From the NCBI GenBank assembly GCA_937858275.1, contig CALLZK010000006.1, forward strand, positions 13,389 to 77,388: a stretch of 64,000 nt of DNA. Direction: 5' to 3'. Under the pieces are notes generated by a model that was given only the letters and a program-made list of their open reading frames with translations, made no database searches and was not told the origin of the DNA. Origin of the DNA: an uncultured bacterium. Its GTDB lineage: Bacteria; Patescibacteriota; Minisyncoccia; Phycocordibacterales; JAACPR01. A program made the position numbers and the translations under genes. Shown piece by piece: positions 51,112-56,256 of this stretch (positions within the stretch are counted from its first letter, which is position 1; each line of letters starts with the position of its first letter).

Positions 51112-51200
51112 AAATTAAAGATGATTATATCATTTAATACAAAACACCTCAACCAATTTGTGAACAAATGGTTGAGGTGCAAATTTCTTTCTTCTTTTTT

Positions 51201-51779
51201 TTATTTTTTATTTACAATTTTCGAAACAACCAATATGGTCATATGCAACACAACCGCAACAACAGGATATACAACATCCTGCCACTTATCCCACCGTATT
51301 ACTACGGTTACAGTCATCAGTGTATATGCTACAGACCATATGGCCCAAGGAAGTATTTCTTCCTTATCGGTTCCACGAAGTAATCCACGAATCAGCGGAA
51401 TGAAGGAGATAAACTCCGTCAACTGCAGTGTTAGATTTGCTTCAGTAGCCCCAATCAAAAACCAGATGAATGTGACAGCGATATCGCTGGCAATAATTGC
51501 ATAATCAATCTTATCCAAACGGCCAATACCGTTTCGATAGACCATAAGAGCAAATATCACCATGCACGACACCGAGCACATGAAGGGCAAAATATCCTTT
51601 ACCATATCTCCGGACATAATGTTGTATGTCGCAAAGTTGAGTAAAGAACCATAAGCCCAAATGAACCAACTAGCAGCATTCGGATCGATTTTACCCGATC
51701 GAACTCCTCGCCAGTAGAACATATAACCGATCACCTGAGTGATTCCGGCCATCAGAGAAACCATGATACTAAAGTCCAT
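51201..51779 (-). CDS. Hypothetical 5-6 TM membrane protein, elevated G+C
   Basis: ORF, GGAG RBS; promoter module 51892-51925 upstream. Confidence 0.45.
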   Translation of the reverse strand: MDFSIMVSLMAGITQVIGYMFYWRGVRSGKIDPNAASWFIWAYGSLLNFATYNIMSGDMVKDILPFMCSVSCMVIFALMVYRNGIGRLDKIDYAIIASDIAVTFIWFLIGATEANLTLQLTEFISFIPLIRGLLRGTDKEEILPWAIWSVAYTLMTVTVVIRWDKWQDVVYPVVAVVLHMTILVVSKIVNKK

Positions 51780-51891
51780 TTTGGACTCCTTTCTGTCGGT
51801 TGTACCGACTACACAAATATTGTTGCATCCAAAATATCACACCGTGTGACAAATTGGTTCAAAAATCGTTTCAAAGAACTGTCTACTACCC

Positions 51892-51925
51892 TTATATTAT
51901 AACATATTTAACAAAAAAAGCAACC
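51892..51925 (-). promoter_or_regulatory. Extended -10 promoter (TGT-TATAAT); 20-nt exact match to the lipoprotein promoter
   Basis: The reverse complement of 51892-51911 equals TTAAATATGTTATAATATAA, found at 23691-23710. Confidence 0.5.
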
Positions 51926-51954
51926 CCCGCAATATAAAAATATATAGCGGGGGG
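51913..51954 (-). terminator. Rho-independent terminator (CCCCCCGC ... GCGGGGG + T-run) for the 51965-52768 gene
   Basis: G+C-rich 7-8 bp stem followed by CTTTTTTT on the minus strand. Confidence 0.55.
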
Positions 51955-51964
51955 CTATTATAAC

Positions 51965-52768
51965 TCAAACAATTGCTGCCCTCATCAAAACGAGGAATAT
52001 TCCACCGAAAGATGATAGTGCAGCCACAAATCCCAAAAAGCCGGGAGACCCTTTCGATTGAGTATCAGAAACTTCTGATTTATCAAATTCAGGATTTGTG
52101 TCTTGAAAATCTTGTTGCTGATTGTTGTTTTTTTGCAACAACTCATCAGCATCAAAAAAATCAGTTTCCCAAACCTCAAGCAAATTTTCCTGAAGAGATT
52201 CCAAAAACAAATGAATTTCTTCAGATGTTCCCGAAATCACAACACTTCCAAAATAAAGTATTTTTTTATCAAAAATAAAAATAATTGGCTGTGTTTTTTC
52301 AGAAATATTTTCATGATCATCGGTGTTGTTATACCGATAATCAACAATGCAAAGATTGATGTAATCTTCATGAAACCAGGCGATTCCAACATTTTCAAGT
52401 CCAGACTGATTATAGGAATCAATCAAGATCGAAATTATTTTTTGTCGCCCAATAGCACTTAAACTAACCGGATGTGCATAAACCGACAAATCAAATCGAT
52501 TCATTTTATCACTCAAGTCAATTTCAGTGTCAGACAATTCGTCAGAATCACAATGTGTTGGAAAATGTCCCAAAACATCTTCCTCAAAATCAATCAAATC
52601 GTAATCGCTCTGGCAACAATCGGCCAGATAATATTCTTGTTGACTTTTCTTGTTTTTTTCTGCCGAATAAAACAAAAAATAAGTCAGTGGAACACAAGTG
52701 ATCAAAATTATAAAAAATGCCCAACGACGACAAAAACCAACAAAGTCTCTTATATTGAATGAATTCAT
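51965..52768 (-). CDS. Hypothetical acidic protein with N- and C-terminal TM segments
   Basis: ORF, AGGAG RBS, moderately elevated G+C. Confidence 0.4.
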   Translation of the reverse strand: MNSFNIRDFVGFCRRWAFFIILITCVPLTYFLFYSAEKNKKSQQEYYLADCCQSDYDLIDFEEDVLGHFPTHCDSDELSDTEIDLSDKMNRFDLSVYAHPVSLSAIGRQKIISILIDSYNQSGLENVGIAWFHEDYINLCIVDYRYNNTDDHENISEKTQPIIFIFDKKILYFGSVVISGTSEEIHLFLESLQENLLEVWETDFFDADELLQKNNNQQQDFQDTNPEFDKSEVSDTQSKGSPGFLGFVAALSSFGGIFLVLMRAAIV

Positions 52769-52844
52769 TTATCAATCTCCTTTTTTGTTTTTTATGTTTG
52801 TTGTTATACTCTGTGCAAATTACAAAGAGCCAAATTCAGCAGAA

Positions 52845-55137: not shown

Positions 55138-55200
55138 ATAGTTTCAGTATTCAAATATTTTTTAAAAACAAATATTTGCCTTATTTTTAATCATAATTTA

Positions 55201-55233
55201 AAAGGTGTTGCAATGCAAACTTGCAACACCTTT
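55201..55233 (-). terminator. Hairpin AAAGGTGTTGCAA / TTGCAACACCTTT after the 55268-56134 gene
   Basis: Perfect 13-bp stem with a 7-nt loop. Confidence 0.5.
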
Positions 55234-55267
55234 TCTGCACCCCCTTTCTTTGTTTGGGATAATTTTG

Positions 55268-56134
55268 TTATTGAAGGAACTCGTCGATTATGGGATTGCC
55301 GGTAGTAGAAGGAACTTCCACTACCCACCAATCTTTTCTCAAACCGACCATCAGAGGTTTTTGAGCTGCGGGAATCAAATCCTTTACAGCCAACCAAAAC
55401 CACTCATCAAGCAAATTTGATTGCTCAGATAATCTCAAAATTTGTAACTGAAACTCGATGGCTTCAGCAACTGTTTTGGATTTCACCCAATCCATAAACA
55501 CTTGAGCATCAGGCATGTTGGGCAATCTGACCCAATCGGGATTTCTCAACCCGACTCGAAGAGTCAAAATTTGCTTGACCAATTCATCTTCCAGTTTTCC
55601 GAGCATTTTTTCTTCATCCCCAATTGGCTGAAGTTCGATCGGAAAATCGAACAAAGATGTTCCACCGAGAATTCCCTGAACAAATTCAAGAAACCTCGAT
55701 GATGGATGTCGGCTATCAAAAAGTGGTTTATCCCACTGCACAAAATCATCTCGTGAGACCGAGATGAACCAATCCTTGTTTACCGAAATAGAGTCGATGT
55801 TTCTTACCTCGGGAAATTGTGCATACACAAATTCCCAAAAGAAACCTCGAAATACATTCCTTTCAGTATTTGCTCTCAATAATTTTTCGGCAAATTTTTT
55901 GCACGAAAATTCGTTGCAGGTTCCACTATTGTGAGCTCGCTGATGCTCTTCCCCCATTCGATCGATTGCAACTGAGCAATCTTTAGCAAAAGACCAAAAT
56001 CTTTTTGCAACAGGGTTTTCGATCATGCCAACGACCGATTTTTCTGGCGAAATATCGCCGGTCGGCTCGTGATGCACATCAGGACAAGAACCATCAAAAA
56101 TCGAGTGGACGGTTTTAATCATTAAACGACTCAT
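55268..56134 (-). CDS. Hypothetical soluble protein, clearly elevated G+C
   Basis: ORF, GAGGAG RBS, promoter P2; no recognisable domain. Confidence 0.45.
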   Translation of the reverse strand: MSRLMIKTVHSIFDGSCPDVHHEPTGDISPEKSVVGMIENPVAKRFWSFAKDCSVAIDRMGEEHQRAHNSGTCNEFSCKKFAEKLLRANTERNVFRGFFWEFVYAQFPEVRNIDSISVNKDWFISVSRDDFVQWDKPLFDSRHPSSRFLEFVQGILGGTSLFDFPIELQPIGDEEKMLGKLEDELVKQILTLRVGLRNPDWVRLPNMPDAQVFMDWVKSKTVAEAIEFQLQILRLSEQSNLLDEWFWLAVKDLIPAAQKPLMVGLRKDWWVVEVPSTTGNPIIDEFLQ

Positions 56135-56188
56135 ATTAATCTCCTCTGTTTGTTGTTTTTACATTTTAAAGAACCAAACTTAATCGAC

Positions 56189-56217
56189 ACAATAACACAA
56201 ATTAAATTTTGTGTCAA
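56189..56217 (-). promoter_or_regulatory. Promoter/operator element P2: TTGACA-N17-TATTGT with the palindrome ACACAAAAT..ATTTGTGT
   Basis: Near-identical to P1. Confidence 0.5.
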
Positions 56218-56256
56218 ACAAAAATAAATACGAAATTGGAGTCAAAAAAAGTTGTT

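Follow-up and report, generated by a model that had tools for sequence, protein, structure and literature searches.

Why should two genes that encode unrelated proteins, separated by native genes in a streamlined chromosome, stand behind almost the same promoter and leader? The window in which this question arises (the whole stretch of 64,000 nucleotides analysed, from contig CALLZK010000006.1) is chromosomal DNA of a Candidatus Paceibacterota population, a member of the Candidate Phyla Radiation (CPR/Patescibacteria), with 29.7% GC. On its minus strand, promoter P1 (52845..52873) precedes a gene for a protein of 267 amino acids (aa) and promoter P2 (56189..56217) a gene for a 288-aa protein, while a gene for a 192-aa protein lies downstream of the first. 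A sequence-only reading of this DNA had taken all three for foreign genes and had suggested that the first two may form a small, repressor-controlled regulon. We propose, with moderate confidence in the explanation as a whole, that P1 and P2 would be two paralogues of a portable expression module about 90-110 nucleotides (nt) long. In it a near-consensus sigma-70 promoter (TTGACA, 17-nt spacer, TGTGt-TATTGT) is followed by a leader that is unstructured and A/C-rich and by a strong Shine-Dalgarno sequence, and each copy would drive one lineage-specific, fast-evolving accessory gene.

Both promoters have the form TTGACA-N17-TATTGT at the positions first given for them, which we could confirm on the minus strand. 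Judged as sigma-70-type promoters (TTGACA, spacer 17 +/- 1, TAnnnT, TG at -15/-14), P1 and P2 show 10/12 matches, with the TG in both, and from these elements it is well supported that they are near-consensus promoters of this type with an extended -10. They are identical at 27/31 positions, so that the 25/31 counted earlier somewhat understated their likeness, and at 26/29 from hexamer to hexamer. The 22-base pattern that they share, TTGACACAAAATN7GTGTTATTGT, has two matches in the 64 kb, P1 and P2 only, where shuffled sequence leads one to expect 0.01. When the upstream regions of 60 genes in the window were compared all-against-all by local alignment, P1/P2 was the highest of 1770 pairs (score 55, against a mean of 21, a standard deviation of 4.4 and a next best of 42). 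The similarity spans about 63-110 nt, continuing through the 5′ untranslated region to the GGAG and the ATG.

These figures bear directly on the simplest alternative, namely that the two promoters resemble each other by chance because promoter sequence here is AT-rich and of low complexity, an explanation which the sequence-only reading had itself named as one that could undo its claim. In its favour, the core is largely promoter consensus, and a relaxed form of the pattern is widespread: a scan of a genome collection (to which the window's own genome does not belong) gave 30 hits, all generic strong promoters, and scans of viral contigs with the motif and with the leader block gave generic promoters or chance hits only, the relaxed pattern occurring in 23 viral stretches; all these stretches are of unrelated origin. 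Against it, the full pattern is found twice where next to none is expected, P1/P2 is an extreme outlier among the pairs, and the likeness runs for about 60 nt past the -10. The shuffle and all-against-all controls thus refute chance resemblance, and we give it almost no credence.

What the two promoters share beyond their cores is the leader. That of P2 (56135..56188, minus strand) is A/C-rich (TTTGGTTCTTT, AACAACAAACA) and carries the Shine-Dalgarno sequence GAGGAG at 56141-56146; that of P1 (52769..52844, minus strand) is homologous to it except for a single 22-nt indel in the alignment, and carries GGAG at 52777-52780, so the ribosome-binding sites were rightly recognised in the earlier reading. 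The blocks TTTGGYTCTTT, AACAACAAACA and GGAGATT are common to both leaders. Since conservation extends in this way beyond the palindrome in the promoter spacer, which is considered below, it points to common descent of the whole expression module; P1 and P2 are paralogues. Neither leader folds better than its shuffles (z = -0.2 for P1 and +0.4 for P2), and no Rfam match was found in them at E <= 10. We therefore rejected a riboswitch or other cis-regulatory leader RNA, there being no conserved structured leader; unstructured leaders that belong to no Rfam family fit a plain, open translation-initiation region. As a practical outcome, in our proposal, transcription and translation would proceed in like manner for the 267-aa and 288-aa genes.

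The relative age of the two copies can be judged from a related species used for comparison (locus L003), which has an orthologue of the P2 promoter in the same slot and of the same length. This orthologue has TTTGACAyAAAA, GTGnTA and AAAACAAyAAA in common with P2, is without the TTTGGYTCTTT block and the spacer palindrome, and is far less like P2 than P1 is. Because P1 is so much closer to P2 than the orthologue is, the P1/P2 relationship is younger than that species split. We infer that one copy may have been duplicated from, or gene-converted by, the other after the split from this nearest sampled relative, in either direction, and that both promoters would be active and their genes co-expressed. 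Among the relatives compared, no recombination event was seen at P1 or P2 themselves.

How are the two copies placed in the chromosome? From 48.8 to 61 kb every gene lies on the minus strand, in the order lysS, rsmE, a DsbD_2/cupredoxin gene, the 288-aa gene, an ABC-F ATPase gene, an NT5C-type nucleotidase gene, the 267-aa gene, the 192-aa gene, a SET-domain gene and a histidine kinase gene. The P1 and P2 units each consist of a single open reading frame (ORF) that lies between native genes and has a promoter, a ribosome-binding site and a terminator to itself, and comparison of the 267-aa and 288-aa proteins upheld the claim that they are unrelated to each other. As had been noted, the -35 box of P1, at 52873-52868, shares bases with the stop codon (TGA, 52872-52870) of the nucleotidase gene before it, which is of the NT5C type. 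The terminators assigned to the two units were also borne out: intrinsic hairpins on the minus strand at 51913..51954 after the 267-aa gene (-20.9 kcal/mol) and at 55201..55233 after the 288-aa gene (-19.8 kcal/mol), both with z about -4 and both followed by T-runs. In our proposal each accessory gene would sit, much as a phage ‘moron’ does (considered below), at the 3′ end of a native operon and directly before an intrinsic terminator.

A 51-nt block around the second of these terminators (55190-55240), which contains the hairpin (GGTGTTGCAAGTTTGCATTGCAACACC) and TTTTAAATTATGATTAAAAA, is 51/51 identical to L003 1885-1935, and stands beside a 288-aa ORF that has only about 60% nucleotide identity between the two species. 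Either strong constraint acts on the block, as it would, for instance, if the ABC-F gene were controlled from it, or the block serves as a recombination anchor. An identical terminator block next to a diverged ORF would be the pattern expected from recombination anchored in conserved regulatory flanks.

Is the palindrome in the promoter spacer, then, the operator for which it was first taken? The dyad ACACAAA-N6-TTTGTGT is perfect in P2 (56195-56214) and has one mismatch in P1, so that the palindrome first described holds in full for one promoter and not for the other; every other site in the window has at least 2 mismatches. If it were a true operator, a dimeric repressor encoded elsewhere would bind between the -35 and -10 boxes and co-repress the two genes as a regulon. 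The dyad lies in the classic occluding position for this, between P1 and P2 its arms differ at a single base and its 6-nt centre at 2, and a distant member of the 288-aa family, at locus L053, has a 64-aa HTH_3 (helix-turn-helix) gene about 210 nt upstream. However, the dyad is statistically ordinary. Perfect dyads of at least 7 bp arise in 1.5% of promoters with random spacers, in 2.2% of those with TGTGT fixed and in 2.4% of real 29-mers from the window (about 2% overall), and at such a rate one is expected by chance across about 60 upstream regions. Its arms are also partly forced by the promoter consensus, the left arm taking 3 bases (ACA) from the -35 box and the right arm 5 bases from the TGTGT of the extended -10, and for these two reasons the dyad is not significant alone.

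Other evidence runs against the operator too. The orthologous L003 promoter reads ACATAAA...CGCGTGA at the position of the dyad and has none, and the same A-tract/T-tract pseudo-palindrome is frequent among unrelated strong promoters of Clostridia and freshwater phages that fit the relaxed pattern. Within the 64 kb there is no third copy of the dyad or of the module, and the only DNA-binding regulator found there, and the only helix-turn-helix gene, is a LexA homologue; the region upstream of lexA carries no P1/P2-like dyad or motif, and LexA was rejected as the regulator of P1 and P2. Most likely the dyad is a by-product that results when an A-tract/T-tract spacer is combined with the -35 box and with the TGTG of the extended -10. 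The operator and regulon reading is thus unproven and, judged from these comparisons, somewhat disfavoured; we consider it unlikely. As to lexA itself (32951-33586; S24 peptidase and LexA DNA-binding domain), the divergent intergenic region that adjoins it holds a perfect DnaA-box sequence, TGTGGATAA, and no recognisable SOS box was identified near the gene within 32771-33586.

Returning to the portable module, its style of expression differs from that of the genes around it. GC content at third codon positions (GC3) is 0.12-0.27 in native genes, a range that is clearly exceeded by the 192-aa gene, at 0.45, and by the 288-aa gene, at 0.40, and just reached by the 267-aa gene, at 0.27, so that two of the three genes are strong compositional outliers and the third is a marginal one. 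A Shine-Dalgarno motif precedes 1/51 native genes and 7/9 genes with GC3 >= 0.27 (Fisher p = 7e-7), and in these 7/9 it is strong and follows a leader of 50-110 nt, with consensus -35 boxes. In 15/53 native genes, by contrast, an extended -10 of the form TGnTAnnnT ends 6-12 nt before the ATG, other 9-nt bins holding at most 3; examples with TGnTATAAT near the start are the genes at 3196, 7821, 17385, 18032, 27726, 30377, 42854, 45781, 47843 and 50629. From the position of these boxes, the mRNAs of the core genome appear to be leaderless. The same picture is seen at other CPR-like loci where the 288-aa gene has relatives, with high GC3 and Shine-Dalgarno sequences in the one set against motif-free neighbours, often with a -10-like box near the ATG, in the other.

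Four more single genes in the window are GC3 outliers (0.34-0.55): an EamA-like gene (9772-10203) and genes for a 96-aa protein (10385-10675), a 135-aa protein (19291-19698) and a 126-aa lipoprotein-like protein (23799-24179), each with its own TTGACA-type promoter, a long leader that carries GGAG, and a terminator. Over 20/20 nt the promoter of the last matches that of the 192-aa gene (TTAAATATGTTATAATATAA), and both genes have a hairpin before the ribosome-binding site and AGAAAGG(G)AG.

The 288-aa gene (55268..56134, minus strand; GC 0.42) belongs to an unannotated family of proteins of about 300 aa. A word-indexed search found the protein itself and one homologue at 53%, and a profile re-search gave nothing useful, but an exhaustive HMMER search recovered 75 cluster representatives of about 300 aa, 21-31% identical and all unannotated, with an internal duplication in which the motif LFWxxV..P..GxRxGWxVV occurs twice. 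With the family alignment, AlphaFold gives a model with a mean local confidence score (pLDDT) of 93.8 and a global score (pTM) of 0.90; Foldseek found nothing below E = 0.2 for it in the PDB or BFVD, and a PhoU-like fold, suggested by weak top matches (template-modelling scores 0.36-0.43), was rejected as non-significant. The predicted fold is thus confident and, as modelled, has no known structural relative in either database.

Members of this family occupy conserved slots and are led by Shine-Dalgarno sequences (loci L053, L055, L080, L082, L052 and L003), and in 7/7 loci their GC is above that of the rest of the locus (e.g. 0.56 vs 0.37, 0.58 vs 0.38). They also diverge faster than what surrounds them: when the window is compared with L003, identity is 53% for the family gene and 70% for DsbD_2, and when L055 is compared with L080 it is 31% for the family gene, 84% for PIF1 and 69% for DUF2914. 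As an orthologue with an orthologous promoter lies in the same L003 slot, and slots are conserved while the genes in them diverge fast, the 288-aa gene is no recent arrival. Its history would be either one of repeated xenologue replacement or one of very rapid evolution in place. Divergence so far above that of the neighbours is a pattern typical of genes in conflict or host interaction.

The 192-aa gene (51201..51779, minus strand) shows what can happen to expression modules in this chromosome. The protein that it encodes is predicted to be a membrane protein of 7 helices, and no family could be detected for it (the single-sequence AlphaFold model, at pLDDT 49, is unusable). Its expression region (51780..51904, minus strand) has the extended -10 TGtTATAAT at 51896-51904, a leader of about 105 nt and GGAG at 51786-51789; on the same strand lie an imperfect 29-nt palindrome (51829-51857) and a hairpin just before the ribosome-binding site (51795-51809). 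The palindrome TCACAC-c-GTGTGA, which had been counted as part of this gene's promoter, falls in the 5′ leader instead. In a sister strain (locus L004) the 194-aa version of the gene is without the leader, and TGtTAAAAT ends 6 nt before its ATG, in the native leaderless style. The two sequences diverge exactly at the -10 box, and in the sister strain a 26-nt direct repeat of a terminator half flanks the 194-aa gene. Read from these junctions, expression modules are demonstrably exchangeable here, the 192/194-aa ORF occurring with either type of leader.

The locus was recovered in three independent assemblies (Logan SRR2107178, GCA_035324455.1 and, from the sister strain, GCA_035327505.1), which rules out an assembly chimera. 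From the YkuD gene through the 267-aa gene the proteins of the sister strain are 100% identical to those of the window, or 99.6-99.7% for the 267-aa and 288-aa proteins; identity breaks inside the 192-aa gene (86%), where the recombination breakpoint between the strains lies, and beyond it falls to 40% for the SET-domain gene and 63% for the histidine kinase. The sister strain's stretch 13955-16800, which corresponds to 51100-51970 of the window, has an extra purD-like gene, a GC-rich gene for a 215-aa protein and a gene for a 112-aa protein.

The 267-aa gene (51965..52768, minus strand) encodes an ORFan that is acidic in its middle part and has a hydrophobic segment at either terminus; a word-indexed search of 5.8 billion protein clusters found no relative besides itself. 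Its C-terminus (51965-52050), ...SKGSPGFLGFVAALSSFGGIFLVLMRAAIV, has a hydrophobic helix after a PGF-like motif, an arrangement that recalls C-terminal sorting signals, and matches no NCBIfam model. None of the 192-, 267- and 288-aa proteins had a significant match in Pfam, PHROGs, NCBIfam or PADLOC, the best being a weak match of the 267-aa protein to a PHROG of unknown function (E = 0.0035).

Could both cassettes have come from one donor, a mobile element such as a CPR phage or plasmid with repeated early promoters, the repeats acting mainly as substrates for recombination? The moron-like anatomy of the units (own promoter, ribosome-binding site and terminator) and a Shine-Dalgarno-led style foreign to the host would suit such an origin; phage contigs do have repeated promoters that are broadly alike in form, such as the two in L068 that lie 312 nt from each other, and T4-type phages offer a precedent (PMC2839356, PMC4122927). 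However, tblastn of the three proteins against phages and plasmids gave no match, and viral contigs likewise contained no homologue, a scan of them with the 192-aa protein giving at most chance hits. The pattern specific to the leader gave a single, chance-like viral hit. The modules are AT-rich like the host and the ORFs GC-rich, and the orthologous 288-aa gene and promoter of L003, as mentioned above, do not speak for recent arrival. Nor do the units lie in phage surroundings: they have no PHROG or phage matches, and their neighbours are lysS, rsmE, DsbD_2, ABC-F, NT5C, SET-domain and histidine kinase genes. We think a common donor improbable.

At some distance from these genes, a tRNA-Asn (5414-5487) is followed by degenerate repeat copies resembling its 3′ end (CAGGTTCGAAC...GGAGCC) at 7734, 10290, 10780 and 11190, between which lie small accessory genes (NYN, S51 peptidase, hydrolase, EamA and minimal nucleotidyltransferase). 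The region 5414-12200 looks like tandem islands integrated at tRNA-Asn, and no integrase was seen in it.

Some considerations weigh against paralogous modules as the explanation of P1 and P2. Our search for copies spans 64 kb, and additional copies elsewhere would speak for a regulon, or else for a repeat family that is dispersed. We read promoter use and transcription start sites from sequence motifs. No relative with an empty site was recovered (a metagenome scan with the ABC-F neighbour gave relatives at 40-55% identity that were not syntenic), and we infer insertion of the 267-aa and 288-aa genes from composition and architecture. Finally, both arms of the dyad are almost perfectly conserved between P1 and P2, as would equally be expected if it were a functional operator.

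If our explanation is true, it would reveal how a streamlined CPR genome accommodates accessory genes, which would bring along, or be provided with, a self-contained module that bypasses the leaderless mode of the host. It would also offer a signature for spotting such genes in uncultivated lineages, namely an excess of GC3, a Shine-Dalgarno sequence and a long leader against a leaderless background; and, should the 267-aa and 288-aa genes be co-regulated, a first handle on regulation in these organisms. A bolder generalisation, which we hold to be doubtful and less likely even than the operator or the common donor on its own, is that CPR bacteria with a leaderless core might keep a separate class of GC-rich, rapidly diverging accessory genes in fixed slots, served by portable sigma-70 and Shine-Dalgarno modules that are swapped at conserved promoter and terminator flanks, with the P1/P2 dyad as the operator of a dedicated regulator.

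How do these units compare with known systems? The concept of phage morons, due to Hendrix and colleagues, is of independent transcription units inserted between genes. The units described here are alike in being single genes with their own promoter and terminator and a deviant composition (marginally so for the 267-aa gene), between functional genes or operons. They are unlike morons in lying in a CPR chromosome among housekeeping genes (lysS, rsmE, ABC-F) and not in a prophage, in that at least one has been retained vertically in its slot across species, and in that two have a homologous promoter-leader. Nor are they integron gene cassettes: each gene has its own promoter, and no shared imperfect inverted-repeat site flanks them. 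In Gram-positive extended -10 promoters, also described by a ‘TRTG -16 region’, TRTG stands just upstream of the -10 box; P1 and P2 have the like TGTGnTATnnT, as do unrelated Clostridia promoters that match the pattern. This accounts for part of the palindrome, but not for the duplication.

Transfer of single genes and of islands is reported, in passages of one study, to be common in CPR/Patescibacteria genomes (PMC12455944). Those passages differ from what we describe in making no mention of promoters, of shared promoter-leader modules or of a contrast between Shine-Dalgarno-led and leaderless genes, nor of genes that occupy conserved slots and yet are persistently GC-rich and unusually diverged. 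As regards repeated promoter cassettes on the flanks of ORFans and their role in shuffling, the closest analogue would be the promoter-early stem-loop (PeSL) of T4-type phages, a mobile, repeated cassette with a sigma-70-like promoter found beside ORFans in variable regions, where recombination at the regulatory repeats exchanges unrelated ORFs (PMC2839356, PMC4122927). Possible parallels are the polymorphic promoter junction at the 192-aa gene and the way in which ORFs diverge between flanks that are conserved, although no PeSL-style mini-circles or recombinants were observed here. Unlike PeSLs, P1 (which overlaps a stop codon) and P2 have no stem-loop immediately upstream, and the repeated unit consists of promoter, leader and ribosome-binding site, known in two copies and from a cellular genome. 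What the analysis adds to the first description is the duplicated promoter-leader module, the dichotomy between Shine-Dalgarno-led and leaderless genes, and the fast-diverging, GC-rich 288-aa family.

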